The translations under genes and the position numbers were made by a program. A stretch of DNA of 20,116 nucleotides, from assembly GCA_023261815.1 (NCBI GenBank), contig JALNKA010000016.1, positions 1-20,116 on the forward strand. The letters are read 5' to 3'. Numbering within the stretch: position 1 is the stretch's first letter; every line of letters begins with the position of its first letter. The notes under the pieces were generated by a model. That model was not told where the DNA came from. It did not search any database and was given only the letters and a program-made list of their open reading frames with translations. This DNA is from Candidatus Wolframiiraptor sinensis. GTDB taxonomy: Archaea; Thermoproteota; Nitrososphaeria_A; Caldarchaeales; Wolframiiraptoraceae. Below, one piece after another: positions 2,117-18,605 of this stretch.

Positions 2117-3328
2117 ATGGAGCTAGCCGGTATCGTGGGCAAGCCCAATGCGGGGAAGAGTACGCTATTCGCAGCCATGACGCTAGCGCCGGTCGAGATC
2201 GCGAACTACCCATTCACGACGATAAAGCCGAATCGCGGAGTAAGCTATCTCAGGATAAACTGCGTCTGCAAGGAGCTCGGGGTCAAGGATAACCCGAGAA
2301 ATAGCAGGTGCGTTGATGGAATCAGATTCATTCCCGTGGAGGTTATCGACTGCCCCGGGATAATAAGGGGCGCTCACGTTGGGAGGGGGCTAGGGCTCCA
2401 GTTCCTCGATGAAATCAGGCAGGCCTCGGCGCTAATCGTTGTCGCGGACGCATCGATGTCAACGGACTCCGATGGCAACCCCGTTAAGCCCGGCGTGGGA
2501 AATCCGATCGAGGACGTCAGGATAGTTGAGGAGGAACTCGATTACTGGATCTACGGCCTCCTATCCGAGGATTGGAAGAGGATATGCAGGGTCGTTGAGA
2601 GCAGAGTTTCGAAGCTTGTGGAGGAGCTCTCGAAAAAGCTGTCGGGCCTGAGGATCACCGGGAAGATCTTGGACGAGACTATAGACGAGCTTGGCCTAGA
2701 CGAGTCCAGGCCCTCCAAGTGGAGCGAGAGCCAACTCCTCTCCTTCGTCAGGAGGCTTAGGGAGAAGAGCAAGCCAATAATCGTCGCGGCGAACAAGATC
2801 GATATCCCGGAGGCCGAGGAGGGCGTGAGGATGCTGAGAGAGGCGGGATACACGGTCGTGCCCGTGAGCGCTGAGGCGGAGAGAATACTGAGAATGGCCG
2901 CTGAGAAGGGGCTGATAAAATACCTCCCCGGAGACAGCGGCTTCGAGATGATAGATGAAGGAAAGCTCACGGCAAACCAGAAGAAAGCCCTGAAGCTAAT
3001 CGAGGAGAGGGTTCTGGAGAAGTGGGGATCAACAGGAGTTCAGGAGATCGTGAACAAAGCCTACTTCGAGGTTCTGAGATACATCCCGGTCTACCCCGTG
3101 GAGGATCCCGAGAAGCTGACGGATAAAGATGGAAATGTGCTCCCGGATGTCTACATACTCCCGAGCGGCTCCACGCCAAGAGACCTCGCATACGCCGTGC
3201 ACACGGACCTCGGGAAGACATTTCTCTACGCCATCGATGCCAGGAGAAAGATCAGGATCGGTGAGAACTACGAGCTGAAATGGGGAGATGTCATCTCGAT
3301 AGTCGCGGCGGCGAGAAGGTCATCATAA
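2117..3328 (+). CDS. ychF: Translation-associated GTPase/ATPase, archaeal YchF/OBG-family with a C-terminal TGS domain
   Basis: Contains GKPNAGKST (G1), ANYPFTTI (G2), DCPG (G3), GRGLGLQFLD, ANKID (G4) and the TGS-like DLAYAVHTDLGKTFLYAIDAR. ATG 2117 is preferred; GTG 2105 is possible. Confidence 0.92.
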   Translation: MELAGIVGKPNAGKSTLFAAMTLAPVEIANYPFTTIKPNRGVSYLRINCVCKELGVKDNPRNSRCVDGIRFIPVEVIDCPGIIRGAHVGRGLGLQFLDEIRQASALIVVADASMSTDSDGNPVKPGVGNPIEDVRIVEEELDYWIYGLLSEDWKRICRVVESRVSKLVEELSKKLSGLRITGKILDETIDELGLDESRPSKWSESQLLSFVRRLREKSKPIIVAANKIDIPEAEEGVRMLREAGYTVVPVSAEAERILRMAAEKGLIKYLPGDSGFEMIDEGKLTANQKKALKLIEERVLEKWGSTGVQEIVNKAYFEVLRYIPVYPVEDPEKLTDKDGNVLPDVYILPSGSTPRDLAYAVHTDLGKTFLYAIDARRKIRIGENYELKWGDVISIVAAARRSS

Positions 3329-8233: not shown

Positions 8234-8987
8234 GATCGAGCTTAAAAATGTCTCATATTCGTTCGGCGATAGGGTTGCGCTTGAGGACGTCTCATTCGAG
8301 CTCAACTCGCCGTTCTTCTGCGCGGTTATGGGGCCGAATGGCGCTGGAAAAAGCACTCTGCTGAAGCTGATGCTCGGCTTGCTTAAGCACCAGAGCGGCA
8401 TCATAAGGATCATGGGATATGATGTTCCGAGGGAGGCCGGCAAGGTTAGAAGGCTGATAGGCTACGTCCCTCAGGTCATCGACATTGATTACAGAGTACC
8501 CATGAGCGTCGAGGAGGTGGTTGCCATGGCCGCGCTATCGAGAGATCTACCACCGAGGATCATGACGGGGAATGTGAGGCGAAAGGTGCGCGAGGTTCTC
8601 GAGCTCGTCGAGCTGGATGATCCATCCATGCAGTTCTCCGAGCTGAGCGGGGGGCAGAGGCAGAGAGCCCTGATCGCCAGGGCGCTCGTGAGCGATCCAA
8701 GAATCCTACTACTCGATGAGCCATACTCGATGCTGGACTTCAACATGAAGTGCGAGATAGCGGAGCTGCTTTACAGGCTGCACAAGGATAAGGGGATAGA
8801 CATCTTCCTCGTGGCGCACGAGCTCAGCCCATGCATCCACCTCGAGCCGATCGTGATATTACTGAACAAGCGCGTCTACGCTATTGGGAGAGCCGGCGAG
8901 GTCCTGACGCTGGAGAATCTCAGGAGAGCTTATCCCGGCTTAACCGAGGTCCCAGCCGGATTCATACTGGGCGAGGATCATGGGTGA
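8226..8987 (+). CDS. Zn/Mn ABC transporter ATP-binding protein (ZnuC-like)
   Basis: Walker A GPNGAGKST, IGYVPQ, signature LSGGQRQR, Walker B LLLDEP and H-loop VAHE. Confidence 0.93.
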   Translation: MAEIELKNVSYSFGDRVALEDVSFELNSPFFCAVMGPNGAGKSTLLKLMLGLLKHQSGIIRIMGYDVPREAGKVRRLIGYVPQVIDIDYRVPMSVEEVVAMAALSRDLPPRIMTGNVRRKVREVLELVELDDPSMQFSELSGGQRQRALIARALVSDPRILLLDEPYSMLDFNMKCEIAELLYRLHKDKGIDIFLVAHELSPCIHLEPIVILLNKRVYAIGRAGEVLTLENLRRAYPGLTEVPAGFILGEDHG

Positions 8988-8993
8988 GGCACG

Positions 8994-9800
8994 ATGACGC
9001 TCGACCTGCTCGCGCTGATCTACTTATCAGCCGCGGCGAACGGCCTTCTAGTCGGGGCCATAAGCCTGCCCCTCATAATCTCCAGGAGCACGCTATTCGC
9101 CCTCACGATAACGCACGCAGTTCTCGGCGGAGCGATACTCGGGATATACGTGAACGAGGTGCTCGGAGTGGGCTTGCCGGTTCAGCTGACGGCATTTCTC
9201 GTCGCGCTAATGCTCTCGATACTCGTCGCGGAATTATCCGAGAAATTCTTCTCCGAGGACGTCTCAATAGCTCTCGCCGTCGCCCTCGCAACCACGATAA
9301 CCGTGGTATTCAGCTACCTCCTCGCTCGAATCTCGCCAGCAGGCTTATCGCAGGCCTGGTCATATGTTGCCGGAACCTCGGCGGTGGCTACGCTCAGCGA
9401 CCTTCAAAGGACGCTGAGTAGCCTGGCCATAATCGTGCCTCTTATTCACATGACGAGCGGCGAGATAAAGTACATATCGTTCGACAGAGATGGGGCCGCG
9501 GCGCTGGGCCTGAACACGAGGGCATATCGCTACCTCTTCTTCGCGCTCGGATCTCTTGCAGCATCAACGCTCTCGATGAGCATGGGCGTCCTCGCCACCC
9601 ACGTTCTCCTAGCGATACCGGGAGCAATAGCGGTCAAGCTATTCCGGAGAAAGCTTTTCACCGCGTCATACCTGTCGGCGGCATGCCTCAGCCTTGGGGG
9701 CTACGCGCTCGCCCAGGCACTAAATATCCCGCCGAGCGGCGGCATCGGAATACTCTCGGCAATAGCTATTCTCGGGATGGTGGTGGCGCGTGAGGCGTAG
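8994..9800 (+). CDS. Zn/Mn ABC transporter permease (ZnuB/ABC-3 family)
   Basis: Highly hydrophobic, with ITHAVLGG and ISFDRDGAAALGL motifs; in an operon with the binding protein and ATPase. Confidence 0.9.
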   Translation: MTLDLLALIYLSAAANGLLVGAISLPLIISRSTLFALTITHAVLGGAILGIYVNEVLGVGLPVQLTAFLVALMLSILVAELSEKFFSEDVSIALAVALATTITVVFSYLLARISPAGLSQAWSYVAGTSAVATLSDLQRTLSSLAIIVPLIHMTSGEIKYISFDRDGAAALGLNTRAYRYLFFALGSLAASTLSMSMGVLATHVLLAIPGAIAVKLFRRKLFTASYLSAACLSLGGYALAQALNIPPSGGIGILSAIAILGMVVAREA

Positions 9801-10275
9801 GGCGCCGAGGCTCAGCCCAAGGGCGATAGAATACCTCCTCTCGATTCTGGAGAGGGCCAGGCATAAGGGCTATGCGAGGCAGTACGAGCTCATCGAGGAT
9901 CTCGGGGTCTCGAAGCCGACCGCGTCTCTCATGGTGAAGAAGCTTAGAAGGGCTGGATACCTGGAGGTTGAGGGCGAGAAGATTAGGCTCAGCGAGGGGG
10001 GTTTGAAGCTGGTGCGGGAGCTGGCTTGGAGACATGGGGTGATAGAGATAGCATTATTCGAGCTAGGCCTCTCGCGTGAGGGAGCATGCAGGATAGCGTG
10101 GAGAATCGCTCAAGAGATACCGGCTGAGGATATTGAACGCATCTGGATAAGGCTTGGCTCGCCGAGATCATGCCCCTGCGGGCACCAGGTCCCGATGACC
10201 GGCAATTGGGCTGGCGACCGGATGATTGAGACGTGCGTGGCCTTTAGGGCTGGCCGACGGCTTGAGCGGCCTTAA
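9790..10275 (+). CDS. DtxR/MntR family metal-dependent transcriptional regulator
   Basis: Contains EYLLSI...ELIEDLGVSKPTASLMVKKL...GYL (HTH), RHGVIE and a P-x-x-CPCGH tail similar to the CPHG motif of this family; last gene of the metal ABC operon. Confidence 0.88.
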   Translation: MRRRAPRLSPRAIEYLLSILERARHKGYARQYELIEDLGVSKPTASLMVKKLRRAGYLEVEGEKIRLSEGGLKLVRELAWRHGVIEIALFELGLSREGACRIAWRIAQEIPAEDIERIWIRLGSPRSCPCGHQVPMTGNWAGDRMIETCVAFRAGRRLERP

Positions 10276-10504
10276 GCGCCAGTATCGCTGAGGCGATTAT
10301 ATCATCGAGCGTCGTGAGGAGAGAGGCTATCGGCCTCCTCGTCCTGACCGCAAAGACTATCTCACCGTTGCTCATTCTCGCGGATAGCTTTATGCCTCTC
10401 GGAAGCGGCTCATTATCCGGCTGAAGAGCTCTCATGACCAGCTCGGCTGTGGAGCTATCATCAAAGCTCATCCTAATCTTGGCCTCGCATTCGATGATCG
10501 GCAT
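10244..10504 (-). CDS. pcc1: KEOPS complex subunit Pcc1
   Basis: Contains RALQPDN and SLLTTLDD motifs and lies just downstream of the DHH gene, as in the conserved archaeal cluster. ATG 10504 overlaps the DHH stop (TAATG); ATG 10513 is the alternative. Confidence 0.85.
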   Translation of the reverse strand: MPIIECEAKIRMSFDDSSTAELVMRALQPDNEPLPRGIKLSARMSNGEIVFAVRTRRPIASLLTTLDDIIASAILALKAAQAVGQP

Positions 10505-11958
10505 TATATCCATCCATACCTCACCCTCGATAACTCTTCTTCAACTGCTCTATCGAGCTCGAGTATGAAGAGGGCTTTCCGGGTCTTAGGTATGCTTGCT
10601 CCAGCCGCGATATCATGCCCGCCGCCCCTCCCGCCGACCAGCTCAGCGACGCTTGCGAGAAGTCTGCCCAGGTTCACGCCCATCTCAACGAGCTTTCTCG
10701 GGGCCCTGGCCGAGACCTTTATCGAATCCTCCGACTGAGCGAGCGCGACCAAGATCCTCTTATCGCCCTGAACTCCCATCGATGATAGCATGGAGGCAAC
10801 CGAGCTTATCAGACGGTCGTCTATCACGCCTCCGCCATCTATCACGAGCAGGTTCTTCAGTTCCTGCCTATTCTCATCCCTCATCGCGTAGTCTATCGCC
10901 TCCGCCAGCCTCCTCCTATAATCCTCGAGCACCCTCTGAGCCTCTTCCAGAAGCGCGCCGCGGCTCCCCATCGCTATCGAGATGCCAAGCCACTCATTAC
11001 CAGTCTTGCCGCATGCGTTCAGCAGCGATGCGAACTCCCTCGCATCCCTCAAGTAAGTCCAAGGCTCTTCCATTGTCAATTCATAGACTTTTCCGATAAC
11101 ATCTCTCGCCATGCTGGGCGGAAGCCCCAGCGACGCCAGGTACTTCAGTATTCCATTGTAGAGCTGCTTCTTCTCGTCTTCGGATAGCTCTGATAATACG
11201 CGCCATCTATCATCCTCCTTCACCCTTATCCCTATCTCAGTTAGGAGGCCGTAGGCGTTCGCCTCATTGCCTGAGATCCCGACGATGAACGGGTTCATTG
11301 TGCTCGCCATAGCGACGTGTATCGGCTTGCTGCTCCTCCCGTAGAAGAGAAGATCCTCCTCAACCCTCAGTAATCCAGCCTTCACGGCATCCTCCACTAT
11401 CCTCTCATTGAAGCCGTGAAGGCCTCGGCCATCAGCTCTATCCTGCATGTCCCCGAGAGCTCCTGTCACGGCGATCGGCGAGAGGATTATGTTCTCCTCA
11501 TTCAGCGCCTTCGCGACCAGATATGCCACGCCAGCCCCACTAACCTCCTCAGATCCGTTTATGCCGTAAAGATGGGGATTGAGCTGAATCACGTTCTCGG
11601 GTGCGGAGCTCATTGGCTCATGATGATCCAAGATTATGATGGGCCTATTCAGCGAGAGCCTGGATATTTCATCCAGGTAGCCGCTTCCCATATCGACGAG
11701 GAGGGGGATATACGATGCCGGGAGATCCGCGAGATGTCTCAGCGCATCATCGAACTCTCCGACCGCCCTCGTAGCGAACCTCGCGTTTTCTCTCAATAAC
11801 GCGGCCGAAGCAATCGCGCCCGAGGAAAGCCCATCAGCATCCACGTGACATAATACTAGAAACTTGCCGCCTTCATCGATCAGCGATCTTATTCGCTCAG
11901 CTACCTCCTCGACTTTCGAGAGAAATCCCTTCTCATCCCTGAACCGGTCCAAAGTCAT
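10504..11958 (-). CDS. DHH family phosphoesterase, archaeal RecJ/Cdc45-like
   Basis: Contains HVDADG, LVDMGSG, ILDHHEP, GALGD and DHHA1 GGGHDIAAGA; syntenic with rps15 and pcc1. Confidence 0.93.
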   Translation of the reverse strand: MTLDRFRDEKGFLSKVEEVAERIRSLIDEGGKFLVLCHVDADGLSSGAIASAALLRENARFATRAVGEFDDALRHLADLPASYIPLLVDMGSGYLDEISRLSLNRPIIILDHHEPMSSAPENVIQLNPHLYGINGSEEVSGAGVAYLVAKALNEENIILSPIAVTGALGDMQDRADGRGLHGFNERIVEDAVKAGLLRVEEDLLFYGRSSKPIHVAMASTMNPFIVGISGNEANAYGLLTEIGIRVKEDDRWRVLSELSEDEKKQLYNGILKYLASLGLPPSMARDVIGKVYELTMEEPWTYLRDAREFASLLNACGKTGNEWLGISIAMGSRGALLEEAQRVLEDYRRRLAEAIDYAMRDENRQELKNLLVIDGGGVIDDRLISSVASMLSSMGVQGDKRILVALAQSEDSIKVSARAPRKLVEMGVNLGRLLASVAELVGGRGGGHDIAAGASIPKTRKALFILELDRAVEEELSRVRYGWI

Positions 11959-13178: not shown

Positions 13179-14480
13179 ATGGCTTTCTGGATAGGGCTCG
13201 ATGACACGGATTCGAGGAAGGCCGGCTGCACCACTTACGTGGCGGCTGTAGCCATGAGAAGGCTCGAGGCCCTCGGCGCGAGGATAGTCGGATATCCCAG
13301 GCTCATTAGGCTTAACCCGAGCTGCCCTTACAAGACGCGGGGTAACGCCGCGATCGCCTTCAAAGTTGAGGGAATCGAGCTGGAGAGAGCCGAGGAGCTG
13401 ATGAGGAGCGTTGTCGAGGAGCTCTCGGAGCTGGATGAGGGTGCTGAGACCGGGATCGTGTTCTTGGAGGGCGAGCCCGATGAAAGGCTGAGAAGCTTCT
13501 ACTGGAGGGCTGTTCGCGAGCTGGTGTCTCTTGATGATGGCTTCAAGGTCGCTGAAGAAGCGGAGGCCAAGCTCATCTACTATGGTAGTGGCAGGGGGAT
13601 CATAGGAGCATTAGCCGCGATAGGAGCTGATCTAAGCCTTGGGAAAACCTACGAGCTCATTGCTCATAGGCGGAGAGAGTACTGGGGCACAGTCAGGAGA
13701 ATTGACCCGGTCTCAGTCCTCGAGCTCGATGAAGCCACCAGACCGTATACATTCGATAACATTGATCCGGAGAGCGGCGAGATCAGGATAGCCCCCCACA
13801 CACCATGCCCAGTCCTCTTCGGGATAAGGGGAGTTGACCCCGAGATATTCGAGAAGGCGCTCAAGATCATCCGCGTATACGAGCCCATAGAATTCGTGAC
13901 CATCTTCGAGACGAATCAGGCGACTGACGTCCATTATCAGAGGCTCGGGATCAGGGATCTCAGGGATGGAGTATGCGCGGTGGTCGAGGGCGTCGTGACT
14001 ATGCAGCCGAGGGCGAATGTGGGCGGCCACGTCTTCTTCAAACTCGGAGATGGCAATGGGGAGATATGGTGCGCGGCCTACGAGCCGACGAAAAGCTTCA
14101 GAAAGCTGATCCTGCAGCTGATCCCAGGCGATGAGGTCGTCGCGTATGGCGCGGTTAAGCAGAAGCCCCAAGGGCTAACGCTCAACCTGGAGAAGATTTA
14201 CATCAGGAGGCTCGCGGAGAAGATCGTTGAGAGGTCGCCGAAATGCCCGGAATGCGGCAAGAGAATGACGTCGATGGGAGGAAGTAAGGGGTTCAAGTGT
14301 AGGAGATGCGGGGCCAAGCTGCCCGAGGAATACAAAGAAATAAGTAGAGTTCCTAGAGCGATTAAGCCCGGTTTCTATGAGGTGCCGCCATCCGCGCGAA
14401 GGCATTTGGCGAGACCGCTGATGCTCGATGAGCTACTCCGAGATAACGAGCATCGTCAAGGTGCTTCTAACCTTATCTAG
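13179..14480 (+). CDS. tiaS: tRNA(Ile2) 2-agmatinylcytidine synthetase
   Basis: Contains IGLDDTDS..GCTTY, LIRLNP..PYKTRGN, GRGIIGALAAIG, PHTPCPVLFGIRG, TNQATD, an OB fold (GGHVF, AAYEPT), a CPEC...CRRC zinc ribbon and RRHLARP. Confidence 0.96.
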   Translation: MAFWIGLDDTDSRKAGCTTYVAAVAMRRLEALGARIVGYPRLIRLNPSCPYKTRGNAAIAFKVEGIELERAEELMRSVVEELSELDEGAETGIVFLEGEPDERLRSFYWRAVRELVSLDDGFKVAEEAEAKLIYYGSGRGIIGALAAIGADLSLGKTYELIAHRRREYWGTVRRIDPVSVLELDEATRPYTFDNIDPESGEIRIAPHTPCPVLFGIRGVDPEIFEKALKIIRVYEPIEFVTIFETNQATDVHYQRLGIRDLRDGVCAVVEGVVTMQPRANVGGHVFFKLGDGNGEIWCAAYEPTKSFRKLILQLIPGDEVVAYGAVKQKPQGLTLNLEKIYIRRLAEKIVERSPKCPECGKRMTSMGGSKGFKCRRCGAKLPEEYKEISRVPRAIKPGFYEVPPSARRHLARPLMLDELLRDNEHRQGASNLI

Positions 14481-14703
14481 CCTCCGTGTGAGGGCGCCCG
14501 GATGGGTATCAGGCCCGGAGCGCTATCCTCCAGGAGATTACCTCCTTAAGCTCATCCATGGTGCCTGCCTCGACCTTCGCTATTATGTCGTATACGCCGT
14601 AAACCGCATAAGCCTCCTTCACGTTGGGAATCTTCTTCAACTCCTTGAGAATCTCCTCCTCGCAGCCTATCTCGGTATTAACTAGGACGAATGCCGTAGG
14701 CAT
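14433..14703 (-). CDS. Stand-alone Lrp/AsnC ligand-binding (RAM) domain protein with two exons, join(14703..14525, 14487..14433), 77 aa
   Basis: Exon 1 encodes MPTAFVLVNTEIG...AYAVYGVYDIIAKVEA...EVISWRI. The expected C-terminus RRLDKVRSTLTMLVISE* lies 37 nt downstream in a shifted frame, and removing the BHB-bounded insert joins them in frame. Confidence 0.9.
14488..14524 (-). other. 37-nt archaeal bulge-helix-bulge intron in a protein-coding gene
   Basis: RNA reads ...CUCCUG GAGG AU^A GCGC UCCGG gccugauacccau CCGG GCGC CCUC AC^A CGGAG... This is a 4-bp helix (GAGG/CCUC) with two 3-nt bulges (AUA, ACA), an intron stem (GCGC/GCGC plus CCGG/CCGG) and an exon stem (CUCC-G/C-GGAG). Confidence 0.88.
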
Positions 14704-14726
14704 GATTTCAAATCTGCGACCCTGGG

Positions 14727-14733
14727 TAATAAA
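14727..14733 (-). promoter_or_regulatory. TATA box of the Lrp/AsnC gene
   Basis: TTTATTA on the minus strand ends 23 nt upstream of ATG 14703, suggesting a leaderless transcript. Confidence 0.55.
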
Positions 14734-14738
14734 TCTTG

Positions 14739-14770
14739 TTAATGATCAAATTAATGGTCAAAGTATGATC
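14739..14770. repeat. Tandem 12-bp direct repeat TTAATG(A/G)TCAAA x2 plus a partial third copy (GTATGATC)
   Basis: ttaatgatcaaa at 14739-14750, ttaatggtcaaa at 14751-14762 and gtatgatc at 14763-14770. Confidence 0.6.
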
Positions 14771-14804
14771 TGTTGAAGAGGGCTGGAGCTGTTGGATTTC
14801 TGGC

Positions 14805-15044
14805 TCACTGGGCTTCGGGGGCTTCCACGGCTTCTGCCTCCTCGAGCTCTTTCTCGAAGCTTCTTCTTACGAGGTTCGTAATATAGCCGGCGACCTTATT
14901 TCTGATCTTCTTGGAGACCTGCCCCGTGAGTACCTGGGATACTAAAAGCTTATTAAGCTCAAAATCCGCGGAAACCTTATCCGGGAACCTCTCGATAACC
15001 TCCTTCGCCAGAACCTTAATCTTCCGGATCTTCACGCGTCCCAT
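14805..15044 (-). CDS. rps17e: 30S ribosomal protein S17e (eS17)
   Basis: MGRVKIRKIK..AKEVIERFP...DFELNK...SKKIRNKVAGYIT; ATG 15044 gives the canonical MGRV start. Confidence 0.96.
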   Translation of the reverse strand: MGRVKIRKIKVLAKEVIERFPDKVSADFELNKLLVSQVLTGQVSKKIRNKVAGYITNLVRRSFEKELEEAEAVEAPEAQ

Positions 15045-15210
15045 GCTCTCAGGCTTAAATTTCAATCAAAGCCCTCCACGATAAATAGCTTCTTCGGAAA
15101 AATTTTTAGGAGATAAGGGGCTCGGGCCGAGAGCCTTTTTACCCGCAAGTTTCTTATACCTTCTTAATCTCCAAGACTTGTGCATAAGGCCTGTACCGGA
15201 GGTGGGGGGT

Positions 15211-15477
15211 GTGCTGACCGCCAGGGGGCATCTTAGGAAGAAGGTTCATGTCAGCGGCAACGTGTACTTCTACATCCACATACCCTCGAAGCTCACGCAT
15301 GATAGCCAGTTTCCCTTCAGCGATGGAGACGAGCTGATAATCTCGGTTGATGCGGCCTCATCCAGGATCATCATAGAGAAGGCGAATAATGGTGAAAGCG
15401 GCCGAGGTGGGAAGAGGTCTCGAGAGAGGATTAATGCCTTAGAGAACGCGCCGCTGCCTGACGCCAAGAGCTCTTGA
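15211..15477 (+). CDS. AbrB/MazE/SpoVT-like small DNA-binding protein
   Basis: YIHIPSKLTHDSQFPFSDGDELIISVD...RIIIEK has a swapped-hairpin pattern; GTG 15211 is preceded by GGAGGTG. Confidence 0.7.
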   Translation: MLTARGHLRKKVHVSGNVYFYIHIPSKLTHDSQFPFSDGDELIISVDAASSRIIIEKANNGESGRGGKRSRERINALENAPLPDAKSS

Positions 15478-15879
15478 CACGCTCTCGCAGACTTCCTCGA
15501 TCGTTCTGGTTATCTTGAAGAGGTGGCTTGGGCAGCGGCAGTCGGATGAGCCGAACCCTTTAATGGCTTTCTGGGAAATCTCCTCCATTAGCCGGGCCAC
15601 CCTGCACTCGTATTCTCTCGGGAGCTCGTAGGCGCATGCTCCCTCGACAATCACCCCCTTATCCACCGTGATGTAATCTATGTGCCATTGCAGCTTCTTC
15701 TCCCTCAACCTGTGCCTCGCTATCCTTTTCTCGAGATTATTCTGGGCTGATCCAACATACGCATATAGCCCTTTCTCCAGCTCGATTTCGCCGAGACCGC
15801 CCACCCTTATCCTCGCATCATCCACGATCCTCAGAAAGAGGATGTAAATGCCCCTCAAGATTCCCGGCGCTCCATTCAT
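15439..15879 (-). CDS. DUF123 / GIY-YIG (Uri superfamily) endonuclease-like protein
   Basis: Contains GIYIL, GLYAYVGSAQ, RIARH, WHIDY, EC and GFGSSDCRCPSHLF. Confidence 0.9.
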   Translation of the reverse strand: MNGAPGILRGIYILFLRIVDDARIRVGGLGEIELEKGLYAYVGSAQNNLEKRIARHRLREKKLQWHIDYITVDKGVIVEGACAYELPREYECRVARLMEEISQKAIKGFGSSDCRCPSHLFKITRTIEEVCESVSRALGVRQRRVL

Positions 15880-15939
15880 CCGCGGCGGGCCTAAATCTTT
15901 ATTATCTCAACCGCACTTGAAGATATTCTGGGAGAATTT

Positions 15940-17001
15940 TTGCAGGTTTCCGGCAAGCCCGCGAGGCTTTACGAGAGGCTTGATGGCGGGGTTACCGTGT
16001 GCAGGGCCTGCCCCAGGTATTGCAGGCTCAAGCCAGGCCAGAGGGGCTTCTGCGGCGTTAGGGGGAATATTGACGGCGTTCTCTACCTCCTGGTCTACGG
16101 TAAGATAATCGCGGCCAACGTTGATCCGATCGAGAAGAAGCCGGTCATGCACTATATGCCCGGGACGAGGGTCTTCTCCATAGCGACTAACGGCTGCAAC
16201 TGGGCTTGCAGATACTGCCAGAATTACGATATTAGCCAGAGGAGGAGGGTTGAGGGCGCGGACGTGAGCCCCGAGATCGTCGTCAAGATGGCTAAGAGAT
16301 ATGGGAGCGAGGGCATAGCCTACACCTATAATGAGCCGACGATCTTCATGGAGTTCGCGCACGACGTCGGCGTGATCGCTAGGAGGGAGGGGCTCTTCAA
16401 CGTCTTTGTCACAAATGGCTATTGGACTCCTGATGCCGTCAGGGAGGCCATGGACTTCCTCGATGCCGCGACCGTGGACTTCAAGGGGAATGCCGATCCC
16501 GATTTCCTGAGAAAGTTCAGCGGCGTCCCGAGCCCCGACCCGATATTCGAGACCCTGCTAGAACTGAGGGATAAGACTAGGATCCACATCGAGGTAACGG
16601 ATCTCGTCGTCCCCAGGATAGGCGATAGCTTGGAGCAGGCTAGAAGGCTCGCCCGCTGGATACACGATAACCTCGGCCCCGACGTGCCGATCCACTTCCT
16701 AAGATTTCACCCGGATTACCTCATGCTGGATCTGCCCGCGACGCCGATCGAGGTTCTCGAGAAGCATTATCACGTCGCCAGGGAGGAGGGGCTGAGATAC
16801 GTCTACCTGGGTAATGTTCCCGGCCACCCGTACGAGAATACAATCTGCCCGGAGTGCGGCCAAGTCGTCGTGGAGCGCTATGGATTCGACATACTCTCTT
16901 GGAACCTCGATGACAAGAATCGTTGCAAGTTCTGCGGCTACCCGATAGCGATCTATGGAAGCCCCTCGCCCAAGGCCCTCGAGCGCAGATTCACGTTCTA
17001 G
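15940..17001 (+). CDS. amrS: AmmeMemoRadiSam system radical SAM enzyme (PflA-like)
   Basis: N-terminal CxxCPxxC...GFCGVR, DPIEKKP, the radical SAM motif CNWACRYCQN, AYTYNEP, RFHPDY, YLGNV and C-terminal CPEC/CKFC. Confidence 0.92.
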   Translation: MQVSGKPARLYERLDGGVTVCRACPRYCRLKPGQRGFCGVRGNIDGVLYLLVYGKIIAANVDPIEKKPVMHYMPGTRVFSIATNGCNWACRYCQNYDISQRRRVEGADVSPEIVVKMAKRYGSEGIAYTYNEPTIFMEFAHDVGVIARREGLFNVFVTNGYWTPDAVREAMDFLDAATVDFKGNADPDFLRKFSGVPSPDPIFETLLELRDKTRIHIEVTDLVVPRIGDSLEQARRLARWIHDNLGPDVPIHFLRFHPDYLMLDLPATPIEVLEKHYHVAREEGLRYVYLGNVPGHPYENTICPECGQVVVERYGFDILSWNLDDKNRCKFCGYPIAIYGSPSPKALERRFTF

Positions 17002-17045
17002 AGCAATCCTTTCCTTTCAATTAAGTTAAGTTCAATCCAAAGGCT

Positions 17046-17063
17046 GAAAGGGAAAAAGAGAGA
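17046..17063 (-). terminator. Pyrimidine/U-rich tract, a candidate archaeal terminator of the BHB/K-turn RNA
   Basis: The minus strand reads TCTCTCTTTTTCCCTTTC directly after the hairpin. Confidence 0.4.
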
Positions 17064-17066
17064 TTG

Positions 17067-17193
17067 TAGGGAGGGGGAAGGGCATTTGGATAGCCCTTCA
17101 CCTGCATCAAGGATTGCACTACTCCCTCGCGGAGCATCAATTCTAGAACTACAGGTTTCATCAGGGCTTTTATCCTGCTCCTCCACCCTCCTA
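17067..17193 (-). ncRNA. Structured RNA precursor: long hairpin with a canonical BHB enclosing an 84-nt kink-turn RNA (17086..17169)
   Basis: Outer stem UAGGAGGGUGGAGGAGCA/UGCCCUUCCCCCUCCCUA; BHB GGAU-AAA / AUCC-AAA; stem AGCCCU/AGGGCU; K-turn (GAU bulge, tandem G.A pairs); ACCUGUA/UGCAGGU; apical UGCUCC/GGAGUA. Confidence 0.72.
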
Positions 17194-17240
17194 GCGGCCT
17201 TATCGTAGGGCGGTTACCAATTCTTGAGAGGCCGTCCTCA

Positions 17241-17246
17241 TTATAA
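17241..17246 (-). promoter_or_regulatory. Candidate TATA box for the BHB/K-turn RNA
   Basis: TTATAA preceded on the minus strand by purine-rich GAAGGAAGAC; predicts a start near 17215-17220. Confidence 0.4.
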
Positions 17247-17349
17247 GTCTTCCTTCAAAATCCCTAGTAGACTCCTTAAACCCCCTTCTCATCCCTGACC
17301 CTCGGCCTAAAATTCCCTTCTTGGATCAATATGGCTGCTGTCAGCATGA

Positions 17350-17554
17350 TCAGGCACCTTCCTCGAGGTCTATCTCGAGTATCCCTGCGAGGTTAGGATG
17401 GAGGATGGCGCTATAGTGGTGATAGACGGGAAGAGGACTGAGAAAATAATCGAGGAGAAATGAAGCTGAACGATCTGATACTTTTAAGGCTTAGGGGATG
17501 AAGTATCCATGTGAGATCGAAATAAAGGACGACGCGATAATAATGATAAGTTAG
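17350..17554 (+). other. Cluster of short ORF fragments carrying a duplicated YPCE(V/I)..(E/K)D.AI(V/I).I motif; probably a decayed small gene or genes
   Basis: GTFLEVYLEYPCEVRMEDGAIVVIDGKRTEKIIEEK* ends at 17463, MKLNDLILLRLRG* spans 17460-17501 and MKYPCEIEIKDDAIIMIS* spans 17498-17554. Confidence 0.4.
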
Positions 17555-17624
17555 GGAGAAGAGCGGTGAAGCATCGTCCGGAGAAGGACTTTAATTCTAG
17601 AAGCATGCGGGGTTTTCGGCTGAG

Positions 17625-18605
17625 ATGAGGCTTCATGCGGGGATTTGCGGGAGCTTCCCGAGGCCGCAGGCGCTCCGAAAAGCCTTCGACGATCTTTCAG
17701 AGGGCAAGATAAGCGATGGGGAATTCAAGAACGTTTTGAGGGAATGCATCCTCGAAGTCGCGAGGCTTCAGGAGAAAGCCGGCATGACCATTCTTACCAG
17801 CGGCCTCCTCTCATGGCACGACCTCTTCAGGCCATTCACAATGGAGCTCGATGGCCTGGAGGCCGGCAGGCTGATCAGATTCTTCGACAACAACTTTTAC
17901 TACAGGTGCCCCACGATAATCGGCAGGATACTGTGGAGAAGGCCGGTGACGGTTGACGAGGTTCAGGAGGTTAGGAGGAACACGCGCGAGCTGGTTAAGG
18001 CGATTATACCGGGCCCATACACGTTTCTAAAGCTCTCGGAAAACAGGTTTTACGCCTCTGAGGATCAACTACTCGACGACTTGATCGAGGCTCTAAGAGC
18101 TGAGGTAAACTCGCTGAGAGGTTCGGCAGACCTGATTCAAGTAGATGAGCCTTCGCTAGTGGATCCAGAGCTCGGGAGATCTGAGAGGCTTAAGGGCATT
18201 GAAGTGGTTAATGAGTTTCTCTCGAAGCTCGGCATGCCGGAGAACGAGGTGATCATCGCGACATACTTTAACTTGGATCCTGAAAGGTATGCCATGCTCC
18301 TCGATCTTCGAGCAGGCCTTCATGTCGATTTGAGGTCCACTCCCGCCGAGGCGGATCTAGCTCTCAAGGAGCACGGGTTTGATGGACAGATCCTGAGCCT
18401 GGGAGTCATAGATTCGAGGAGCATCTACCCCGAGGACCCGCGTGAGATAGTTTACCGCGTGAGGGCTTACCTGGACTCGATATCGCCGCATGTTCTGATC
18501 TTCTCTACTAGCTCTTGGCTCGACTACATCCCTTATAATGAGGCTGTTAGGAGACTTGATGCTCTCGGCAGAGTTCTAGCCGAGGCTGAGGTGAGGTTCC
18601 TATGA
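17625..18605 (+). CDS. Cobalamin-independent methionine synthase family, N-terminal-half-like (non-catalytic) subunit of a split MetE
   Basis: Contains GSFPRP, RFFDNNFYYRCP, KAIIPGPYTF, IQVDEPSL, TYF and LGVIDSR; lacks the HxC and CG zinc ligands. Confidence 0.85.
   Translation: MRLHAGICGSFPRPQALRKAFDDLSEGKISDGEFKNVLRECILEVARLQEKAGMTILTSGLLSWHDLFRPFTMELDGLEAGRLIRFFDNNFYYRCPTIIGRILWRRPVTVDEVQEVRRNTRELVKAIIPGPYTFLKLSENRFYASEDQLLDDLIEALRAEVNSLRGSADLIQVDEPSLVDPELGRSERLKGIEVVNEFLSKLGMPENEVIIATYFNLDPERYAMLLDLRAGLHVDLRSTPAEADLALKEHGFDGQILSLGVIDSRSIYPEDPREIVYRVRAYLDSISPHVLIFSTSSWLDYIPYNEAVRRLDALGRVLAEAEVRFL

Follow-up and report, generated by a model that had tools for sequence, protein, structure and literature searches.

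A spliced Lrp/AsnC gene and a probable BHB-bracketed guide RNA of an IS110/IS1111-like element in a Caldarchaeales archaeon

Results

Two BHB motifs within 3 kb

The window, a 20,116-nucleotide stretch of the Candidatus Wolframiiraptor sinensis genome, contains two different minus-strand substrates of the archaeal tRNA-splicing endonuclease (EndA), one established by a spliced transcript and one predicted. Considered together, they are probably explained by a spliced Lrp/AsnC gene and an IS110/IS1111-like guide RNA bracketed by a BHB. The motifs fall within positions 14433–17193; of these limits, 14433 is the final base of the exon 2 stop codon, and the second BHB's outer stem starts at 17193. 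Both lie on the minus strand, with the limits proposed in a sequence-only reading of this DNA, and folding, comparison, and RNAalifold show that these two non-tRNA BHB motifs within 3 kb are genuine. That reading had taken the first motif for an mRNA intron, which is borne out by a spliced transcript contig in the RNA run X18. Its "intergenic BHB hairpin" is indeed a BHB, but the RNA is part of a mobile element and not a free-standing intergenic RNA. The wider splicing layer that it proposed for this lineage is only partly supported.

An intron in the Lrp/AsnC gene

The stand-alone Lrp/AsnC ligand-domain gene (14433..14703, minus strand), which is small and regulator-like, comprises two exons and a 37-nt intron. 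Exon 1 (14525..14703, minus strand; ATG at 14703) encodes the Lrp/AsnC ligand-binding (RAM) domain. Exon 2 (14433..14487, minus strand) encodes (I)RRLDKVRSTLTMLVISE and includes the stop codon (14433–14435); 48 nt of it are shared with the 3' end of TiaS, a plus-strand gene (13179..14480). The BHB intron is placed at 14488..14524 (minus strand) by the fold, related loci, and an RNA contig; limits of 14487..14523 are equally good owing to an ambiguous flanking A. In the unspliced frame, a stop at 14509 yields a 64-aa ORF, in which the Pfam AsnC_trans_reg match covers only profile positions 1–56 of 73, while the predicted spliced product is 77 aa long.

The whole BHB spans 14482..14536 (minus strand) and contains an outer helix, a central helix, bulges, and an inner hairpin. 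In the RNA fold, read by hand, the outer helix (14531–14536/14482–14486) is relaxed, with 3–4 pairs, and the central helix pairs GAGG (14527–14530) with CCUC (14490–14493). The bulges are AUA (14524–14526) and ACA (14487–14489), and the inner helix (GCGC../..GCGC) is strong. This is the 3-4-3 BHB geometry, with helices on the flanks and a 4-bp helix between two 3-nt bulges on opposite strands. For the 121-nt intron stretch, the fold energy is ordinary (z −1.05), and the intron is therefore supported by comparison and RNA data, not by energy.

Intron removal restores the C-terminus conserved in intronless orthologues (..ISW(K/S)IRRL(D/E)KVRSTLTMLVV.., frame +1 translation). The predicted junction reads W-R-I-R-R-L-D-K, matching the intronless orthologues, which have ..ISWKIRRLDKVRSTL.. 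where the predicted splice gives ..ISWRIRRLDKVRSTL.. A motif pattern matched 33 of 100 related loci, 29 with an insert of 29–39 nt and 4 without one; the other 67 fall outside the pattern. All 29 inserts occur at the same codon, with lengths covering all three classes modulo 3. The exon 2 protein is conserved across three genera, the flanking BHB bases are fixed, and the inner hairpin of the intron varies among orthologues with compensating substitutions.

The X18 metatranscriptome contains a contig that joins 14486 to 14524, skipping exactly 37 nt with a 1-nt ambiguity; this evidence for the spliced form is a single contig from a single RNA run, whose data are kept as assembled contigs. The DNA runs X1 and X3 gave 0 contigs with the 37-nt joint, and both read through the intron. 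The read-through DNA is of the same strain variant as the X18 contig, both having a 12-nt deletion at 14739. The joint could conceivably stem from an intronless allele at the DNA level in that sample.

The genome encodes an alpha-like EndA subunit above the TIGR00324 cut-off and a second, beta-like subunit below the cut-offs, together with an RtcB ligase. This two-subunit type agrees with the wider endonuclease use suggested from the sequence. The two-subunit EndA would cut within both 3-nt bulges of the Lrp/AsnC transcript, and RtcB would join the exons, leading to the 77-aa protein; we infer that these are the enzymes that splice the intron.

A BHB-flanked RNA at the 3' end of a predicted recombinase gene

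The second motif is best explained as a guide RNA, encoded by an IS110/IS1111-like mobile element that had not been annotated before. The BHB-flanked RNA (17065..17191, minus strand) is one of 18 covariance-model matches in this genome, representing a multi-copy family. Its minus-strand parts are an outer stem (~17176–17191/17067–17084), a central helix (GGAU 17172–17175/AUCC 17088–17091), two AAA bulges (17169–17171 and 17085–17087), and an inner stem (17163–17168/17092–17097). RNAalifold applied to 13 copies independently returned the outer stem, the 4-bp helix, the two 3-nt bulges, and the inner stem, and at each of the four central-helix positions, 12 or 13 of the 13 aligned copies have a standard pair. 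The geometry is correct on the minus strand only, where we take the side of the bulges relative to the central helix to be that of tRNA introns. EndA cuts after the second bulge base, and by this rule the cut sites are placed at 17169 and 17086. The predicted excised RNA is thus 84 nt long (17086..17169, minus strand) and possibly circular. It includes a basal loop with GAU GA (17158–17162) opposite GA (17098–17099), which resembles a kink-turn according to what we take to be the consensus. The RNAalifold structure also has a stem, an internal loop whose two arms are variable, and a distal hairpin (17122–17134). No second programmable loop or donor-binding loop is evident in the consensus structure. 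An oligo-T run follows the hairpin.

In intact copies, a paralogous gene for a protein of ~300 aa carries the guide RNA at its 3' end, and the predicted 5' cut falls directly after the stop codon of this gene. This protein has no Pfam match even at an E value of 10, reaches only 10 bits (E 0.3) against the NCBIfam model transpos_IS110, whose cut-off is 140, and has no sequence match to solved structures. Its AlphaFold model (pLDDT 91, pTM 0.86) gave full-length Foldseek matches to TIGR-TasR, ISCro4, and the IS621 bridge recombinase (8wt9, 8wt6, 9t56, and 9mty; probability 1.0, E 3e-6 to 3e-5, TM 0.53–0.58). The predicted fold matches a RuvC-like domain, a coiled coil, and a C-terminal domain. 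Asp9, Asp46, Asp97, Asp100, and Ser216 (D9, D46, D97, D100, and S216) are invariant in the alignment (A2), and these presumably equate with the catalytic DEDD and serine of IS621. On the basis of its predicted fold, the protein matches an IS110/IS621-type bridge-RNA recombinase.

A filtered covariance-model search of 40 relatives found nothing. With the filters off and E <= 0.1, 13 of the 16 relatives' loci searched had the BHB RNA at the recombinase homologue's 3' end; these 16 loci come from 10 relatives' genomes, some of them without a match. The covariation alignment took in 13 relatives' loci and has 23 rows, in which the central helix covaries (AU 10/GC 10 and UG 7/UA 8/CG 6). The kink-turn-like loop is not kept in another genus, where the BHB itself persists with different helix sequences. 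This persistence bears on the alternative that 17065..17191 is a structured, MITE-like repeat end or terminator with an incidental BHB shape that EndA never cuts. Such an origin would suit a repetitive sequence within an insertion, followed by oligo-T and with an ordinary fold energy (z −1.38 for the 301-nt hairpin stretch). It would also suit the finding that neither cleavage ends nor a circular joint at 17086/17169 occur among the contigs, although contigs of a repeat show such features poorly. However, the 13 aligned copies share the exact 3-4-3 geometry, which also persists in the other genus, the recombinase stop codon sits at the 5' cut site in intact copies, and symmetric 3-nt bulges are needless for a plain terminator. 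We consider the terminator or repeat-end origin unlikely.

Insertion site and variable arms

The guide RNA in the window belongs to a 581-nt insertion (17012..17592, minus strand), a non-autonomous, internally deleted IS110-like copy recognized from empty sites in congeners. In three of these (G007, G005, and G002), the counterpart of 16700–17011 abuts that of 17591–17800 with a 2-nt overlap. Similarity to other copies reveals a left-end repeat (~17377–17559, minus strand) and a remnant of the recombinase gene 3' end (~17192–17359, minus strand) within the insertion, which also holds the guide RNA and a right-end tail. Variable arm 1 of the RNA (UUCUAGAAUU; 17139..17148, minus strand) is the reverse complement of the 10 nt to the right of the junction, the right target half-site (17593..17602, plus strand). 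Variable arm 2 (GCAAUCCUU; 17109..17117, minus strand) is identical to the 9 nt to its left, the left target half-site (17003..17011, plus strand). Both half-sites are flush with the insertion, the left one lying just past the stop codon of a radical-SAM gene (15940..17001).

A second copy (C9) displays the same pattern of arms and flanks against the intact site in G005, over 9 nt and 12 nt. Complementarity of at least 8 nt to the copy's own flanks was found in 7 of 16 copies versus 11 of 240 non-own pairings, and several copies lack a long flank match. In five copies, arm 1, not arm 2, pairs with the RNA-proximal flank, which speaks against the proposed reading.

These observations are consistent with a mechanism in which the two copy-specific arms would bind the two flanks of the insertion point, pairing with opposite strands, like the target loop of a bridge RNA or seekRNA. 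EndA would free the guide RNA from the 3' region of the recombinase mRNA, RtcB may circularize it, and the mRNA ends would be rejoined after its release. The window copy is a 581-nt deletion derivative that inserted just past the radical-SAM stop codon. As for the expected BHB-matured circular RNAs, the genome does hold 18 BHB-flanked copies, but these form one mobile-element family, and neither cleavage nor circularization of the guide RNA was seen among the contigs.

Search for further BHB introns in protein genes

The sequence-only reading had also anticipated many small BHB introns in protein genes, amounting to a general splicing-dependent expression layer. ORFs of the complete relative G030 were compared with this genome by tblastn, and for 1243 of them the top match scored 60 bits or more. 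The scan recovered the Lrp/AsnC intron, which served as the positive control, and no second BHB intron among these 1243 conserved ORFs. The scan is blind to introns common to G030, in-frame introns without stops, exons shorter than about 8 aa, and genes without a G030 orthologue. Tandem duplications, 1-nt frameshifts, an intein, and an rRNA insertion account for the remaining split matches. The Cbf5 gene is intact and has no intron here.

A genome-wide 3-4-3 descriptor, with tRNA, rRNA, and guide-RNA family copies set aside, gave 505 hits, compared with 387–438 for four decoy geometries with the same helices and 252–297 in four block shuffles. The test is a weak one, in which few known tRNA introns were recovered. 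An ORF-fusion filter passed 567 of 3024 candidates with the true geometry and 444 of 2611 decoys, at similar rates. A hidden layer of introns would draw on the one coding-sequence intron, the modest excess of 3-4-3 hits over decoys and the larger one over shuffles, and the two-subunit endonuclease. Against this, the G030 scan yielded the Lrp/AsnC intron and no further one, Cbf5 is uninterrupted, and true and decoy geometries pass the fusion filter alike, which makes such a layer very unlikely. For the annotation of Caldarchaeales genomes, short BHB inserts and BHB-flanked 3' RNAs are worth seeking, while mRNA introns should not be presumed to form a genome-wide layer.

Discussion

The element resembles the IS110/IS1111 elements described with a bridge RNA or seekRNA (Durrant 2024, PMC11208160; Siddiquee 2024, PMC11187229). 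The likeness extends to the recombinase fold, predicted here, and to the arrangement known from IS1111, with a non-coding RNA downstream of its gene. Short stretches of the RNA correspond to top- and bottom-strand DNA on the two sides of the insertion point, the junction has a 2-nt overlap, and the elements are multi-copy and site-specific. Differences are also apparent. The present protein is invisible to the Pfam models used in those surveys, its RNA is bracketed by a canonical archaeal BHB with a kink-turn-like base in this genus, and one programmable loop is recognized, with no donor loop seen in the consensus structure. The omega-RNA circles of archaeal IS200/IS605 elements offer a second parallel, being transposon guide RNAs that lie at the transposase gene's 3' end and may form circles in archaea. 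In the text of that report, they lack a BHB, and an EndA-independent route is proposed (Picinato 2025, PMC12558985). In contrast, the RNA described here has a canonical, conserved BHB, and no circle was seen among the contigs.

Like box C/D sRNAs, the RNA has a terminal stem with a UGAUGA.../...UGA kink-turn-like motif, here beside an IS110-fold protein in an archaeon. The repeated RNA might accordingly be a family of box C/D (or H/ACA) modification guides and not a transposon guide, with a 5'-proximal CUGAUGA and a 3'-proximal (G/C)UGA adjoining the terminal stem, two variable stretches, and L7Ae present. Other observations oppose this identity: C'/D' boxes are absent, and the best runs of complementarity between the arms and rRNA or tRNA are 5–10 nt, not above the best 8–12 nt per guide in 10 shuffles. 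Moreover, the arms correspond to the DNA on either side of their own insertion, and the copies adjoin a recombinase-like gene, so that a modification guide is extremely unlikely.

A link from IS110 to Nop5 has been proposed, and the archaeal IS110 lineage is stated to be missing from the data (Vaysset 2024, bioRxiv 10.1101/2024.06.21.599552). The IS110/IS1111-like element with its guide RNA could belong to a Pfam-invisible, archaea-specific IS110-like branch, in which EndA would cut the guide at the BHB after the stop codon, RtcB would close the circle, and an L7Ae-type kink-turn would form its base. Such a branch would stand, as a living intermediate, between bridge-RNA transposons on one side and Nop5/box C/D guide RNPs on the other, and would be the lineage missing according to Vaysset et al.; we offer this as a possibility that is still doubtful. 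The second motif suggests an archaeal family of RNA-guided recombinases that has gone unannotated and whose guide RNA appears to be tied into BHB processing by the host. Confirmation of cleavage would make this a new route for the maturation of mobile-element guide RNAs. It would also provide a programmable guide of thermophile origin that is compact and possibly circular, and a concrete system in which to test the proposal that box C/D RNPs descend from IS110-like elements. The source organism is a hot-spring archaeon.

The Lrp/AsnC intron can be compared with the short BHB intron in the cbf5 pre-mRNA of Crenarchaeota (Watanabe 2002; Yokobori 2009, PMC2738675) and the 5'-UTR intron of HVO_1309 in Haloferax (Schwarz 2020, PMC7714728). 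These two are the only archaeal mRNA substrates named in the excerpted text of PMC7714728 (2020) and PMC10485636 (2023). All three are short BHB introns in protein-gene transcripts, associated with a hetero-oligomeric endonuclease and with gain and loss among close relatives. The present case differs in its gene, a stand-alone ligand domain, and in its lineage, the Caldarchaeales. That the gene is instead a pseudogene carrying a frameshift, or relies on ribosomal frameshifting or bypassing in place of splicing, would suit its truncated annotated product and the many 62–64-aa calls in the protein database, but merits almost no credence, given an exon 2 protein conserved in three genera despite the 29–39 nt insert variation, fixed flanking BHB bases, and an RNA contig lacking exactly the BHB-delimited 37 nt. 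Beside the two mRNAs named in those excerpts, the spliced Lrp/AsnC transcript is a third, supported by transcript data; it would be the second with an intron inside a coding sequence, and it comes from a different phylum-level lineage. The truncated proteins of 62–64 aa reported by gene callers are a consequence of this intron.

Two BHB motifs in the window

The C. Wolframiiraptor sinensis assembly (G000) spans 1.18 Mb in 33 contigs with a completeness of 92.4%, and the window corresponds to contig C23. Window gene calls and Pfam matches identified the TiaS gene (13179..14480, +), a 64-aa ORF with an Lrp/AsnC ligand domain (14509..14703, −), a radical-SAM gene (15940..17001, +), and two MetE-like genes starting at 17625, with S17e and DUF123/GIY-YIG genes nearby. 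The window yielded no Rfam match at gathering thresholds and no tRNA by ARAGORN. The two non-tRNA BHB motifs that the sequence-only reading had placed at 14433–17193 are confirmed by the folds, by orthologues, and by an RNAalifold consensus of 13 copies. They differ in nature: one is an mRNA intron (14488..14524, −), and the other brackets an RNA (17065..17191, −) that belongs to a mobile element.

The Lrp/AsnC mRNA intron

The Pfam AsnC_trans_reg domain in the 64-aa ORF covers only profile positions 1–56 of 73, and RRLDKVRSTLTMLVISE followed by a stop codon is encoded downstream in a different frame. In the minus-strand fold, read by hand, the BHB comprises a GAGG/CCUC central helix with AUA and ACA bulges, a strong inner hairpin, and a short, relaxed outer helix. 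Cleavage by EndA, which we take to occur after the second bulge base, would remove 37 nt (14488..14524) and give a 77-aa product. The predicted junction, ..TGG AGG AU|A CGG AGG.., encodes W-R-I-R-R-L-D-K, matching the insert-free orthologues (L014 and L017–L020), which read ..ISW(K/R/S)IRRL(D/E)KVRSTLTMLVV.. and derive from two genomes of another genus in the same family as well as from the same order. Exon 2 of the Lrp/AsnC gene (−) converges on the TiaS gene (+), and the two share 48 nt (14433–14480).

An insert is present at the same codon in 15 other loci from three genera. A motif-pattern screen of 100 loci revealed inserts of 29–39 nt in 29 and no insert in four, while the pattern failed to match the remaining 67, which come mostly from more remote taxa. 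The insert lengths among the pattern-matched loci cover all three classes modulo 3. Across the loci, substitutions in the inner hairpin compensate one another, and the flanks that form the BHB are fixed. For this locus, the nearest named genomes are those of Candidatus Wolframiiraptor gerlachensis and W. allenii, followed by Ca. Benthortus and Ca. Geocrenenecus, all of which are Caldarchaeales of hot-spring origin.

The splicing proposed for this mRNA is supported by a 1079-nt contig from the metatranscriptome run X18, in which position 14486 is joined to 14524, skipping 37 nt with a 1-nt ambiguity. In the DNA runs X1, from which this assembly may derive, and X3, the contigs are contiguous across the intron. 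Since a 12-nt deletion at 14739 is common to the X3 DNA and X18 RNA contigs, the same strain variant retains the intron in its DNA. The spliced form is represented by one contig from one RNA run, and an intronless DNA allele in the X18 sample is possible. Typing of the EndA subunits identified a catalytic subunit (TIGR00324, 103.7 bits) and a second, beta-like paralogue that matches the structural repeat and, weakly, the "subunit beta" models, with the two genes on contigs C7 and C1; RtcB is also encoded. Two reports list no archaeal mRNAs other than cbf5 and HVO_1309 as known to be spliced by the BHB route (PMC7714728, 2020; PMC10485636, 2023). The 37-nt intron, with its transcript support, adds to this very small class. 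The Cbf5 gene of G000 contains no intron.

The BHB-flanked RNA and its associated recombinase-like protein

The second motif had been read as an intergenic BHB hairpin. The BHB was upheld, but the RNA belongs to a mobile element and is not a free intergenic transcript. The region 17040–17220 is repetitive in G000, with 18 BLAST matches; a covariance model derived from 13 of the copies likewise gave 18. The RNAalifold consensus of the 13 copies, on the window minus strand, comprises an outer stem, a 4-bp helix (GGAU/GUCC) with two 3-nt bulges, and a 6-bp inner stem. Further in, an asymmetric loop, which we consider to fit the kink-turn consensus, precedes a stem with UA-to-CG covariation; the distal part forms a large internal loop with two copy-specific arms and a small hairpin, and an oligo-T run lies downstream of the structure. 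BHB-flanked RNAs are indeed numerous in G000, but all belong to one element family. Neither a circular nor a cut form of the family RNA, including the window copy, was seen in the run contigs. The loose ends at 17150, 17151, and 17188 occur in DNA and RNA runs alike and mark repeat boundaries. A role of the variable arms as rRNA or tRNA modification guides was dismissed, as their complementarity was no better than that of shuffled sequences.

The RNA copies are located at the 3′ end of a paralogous gene. In the intact copy (C12:669-1580), the final base of the central helix and the first two of the bulge fall within the stop codon. The encoded protein has no Pfam match and only a faint match to the NCBIfam "IS110 family RNA-guided transposase" (E 0.3); its 69 homologues, from Nitrososphaerota-type MAGs, are all unnamed or "hypothetical". 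Sequence and profile searches against solved structures returned nothing, or only coiled-coil noise such as keratin. The AlphaFold model (pLDDT 91.2, pTM 0.86) can be superposed over its full length on TIGR-TasR, ISCro4, and the IS621 bridge recombinase (E 3e-6 to 3e-5, TM 0.53–0.58), and the next class of matches covers only the RNase-H-like core of integrases. A distant IS110-like recombinase paralogue (38% identity) is encoded at C17:28909-29556 (−); its structured 3′ tail is a different one, has no covariance-model match, and terminates in the same CCCTCTTTTTCCCC run.

Homologues of the protein were found in 13 of the 76 genomes of the class searched, G000 included, mainly in a single further genus of the family and often in multiple copies. 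BLAST-level and filtered covariance-model searches detected the RNA family in none of 40 relatives, a misleading result, since an unfiltered search beside the protein homologues (E ≤ 0.1) placed it at the 3′ end of the gene in 13 of 16 loci. The alignment took in 13 loci from other genomes, leaving 23 of 27 rows after removal of four antisense ones. Both the central helix (AU 10/GC 10 in one pair; UG 7/UA 8/CG 6 in another) and the outer stem (GC 11/CG 8 in one pair) covary in these 23 rows, with counts that lean toward the model because the alignment was fitted to its structure. The kink-turn-like loop is not kept in the other genus.

Insertion and target match

In three congeners, the counterpart of window 16700–17011 directly abuts that of 17591–17800 with a 2-nt overlap, indicating that 581 nt (17012..17592) are inserted in the window. 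Segments of this insertion are similar to the left-end region, the final ~170 nt of the gene, and the RNA as found in other copies, which marks it as a derivative with an internal deletion. The sequence of the empty site is ..GCAATCCTT^AATTCTAGA... The 9 nt on the left of the junction recur unchanged in arm 2 of the window RNA (17109..17117, −), and arm 1 (17139..17148, −) is the reverse complement of the 10 nt on the right; each match is flush with the junction. The arms of the C9 copy show a like match (9 nt + 12 nt) to the intact site in the orthologous spacer of the congener G005. More broadly, when the RNA core was compared with the adjoining 60 nt, the longest complementary stretch reached at least 8 nt in 7 of 16 copies, versus 11 of 240 pairings of an RNA with the flank of another copy. 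In five copies, arm 1 and not arm 2 matches the RNA-adjacent flank, an observation that counts against a guide RNA. The empty-site test was not clean for the C4 copy, whose flanks lie in relatives on different contigs or ~650–700 unrelated nt apart, or for the C12 copy, where the contig terminates within the element; by our own arithmetic, the flank complementary to arm 1 in C4 lies within a few nt of the end of homology with relatives. The target half-sites of the C9 copy (C9:60318-61125) are in opposite orientations ~470 nt apart and adjoin an inverted left-end-type repeat (60756-60859), an arrangement that points to either an inversion or a second insertion.

A better account of the hairpin is that it is the guide RNA of an unannotated IS110-like element, bracketed by a BHB and with processing predicted at 17169/17170 and 17085/17086. 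In two reports on IS1111-type elements (PMC11187229, PMC11208160), the RNA is situated downstream of the gene, and short stretches of it correspond to both strands around the insertion site; the window family parallels both features. BHB bracketing represents a new form relative to known IS110-type guide RNAs. Circular omega-RNAs without a BHB are described in PMC12558985, and Vaysset et al. (bioRxiv 10.1101/2024.06.21.599552) link IS110 recombinases to Nop5, with an ancestral archaeal clade absent from their data. In the literature searched, no paper ties a BHB to an IS110-type guide RNA; the IS110 catalogues of the cited studies may include the family.

Scan for further BHB introns

The sequence-only reading had extrapolated to many small BHB introns that may be hidden in protein genes, as a splicing-dependent expression layer. 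ORFs of the complete relative G030 (1.68 Mb) were compared with G000 by tblastn; the 1243 whose top match reached 60 bits or more were scanned for neighbouring matches separated by additional DNA and for missing termini reappearing nearby in another frame. The Lrp/AsnC intron was recovered as a positive control, and no other BHB-type intron was found among the 1243 ORFs; a broad layer of mRNA introns is not supported.

The other candidates were rejected as introns. Exact tandem duplications of 13 nt (C9 ~50930-50945, ABC-ATPase gene) and 11 nt (C10 ~77950-77965, short-chain dehydrogenase gene) break conserved frames and form no BHB. At C29 ~8591-10868, C11 ~4-732, and C33 17554-18444, conserved genes carry 1-nt homopolymer frameshifts and one contains an in-frame TAA; these could be assembly errors or pseudogenes. 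The candidate at C16:1380-2242 is a frameshifted, truncated TyrRS-like fragment without ~100 N-terminal residues, adjoining a divergent paralogue on the opposite strand (2320-3246). The C26 candidate is an antisense ORF across two genes, and C10:154362-155818 is an in-frame intein-like insertion of ~485 aa in an MCM-type gene.

In the proposed comparison with shuffled sequence, BHB hairpins found by the descriptor were more frequent in real sequence than in shuffles. The true geometry was only modestly above decoy geometries. With a threshold of 12, the strict descriptor matched the right strand at only four tRNA loci; ARAGORN detected 42 tRNAs in G000 and predicted introns in 19 of them, including one implausible call of 1791 nt. 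The sensitivity of the descriptor was thus poor. Because its excess over decoys was modest, it was not used to nominate new substrates; an ORF-fusion filter on its matches provided no discrimination. The 16S and 23S rRNA genes lie on separate contigs, and the 23S gene (C28:51900-55761) is ~870 nt longer than the Rfam model. Relative to G030, it contains an insertion of ~225 nt (C28 52745-52989), which probably represents one or more rRNA introns.
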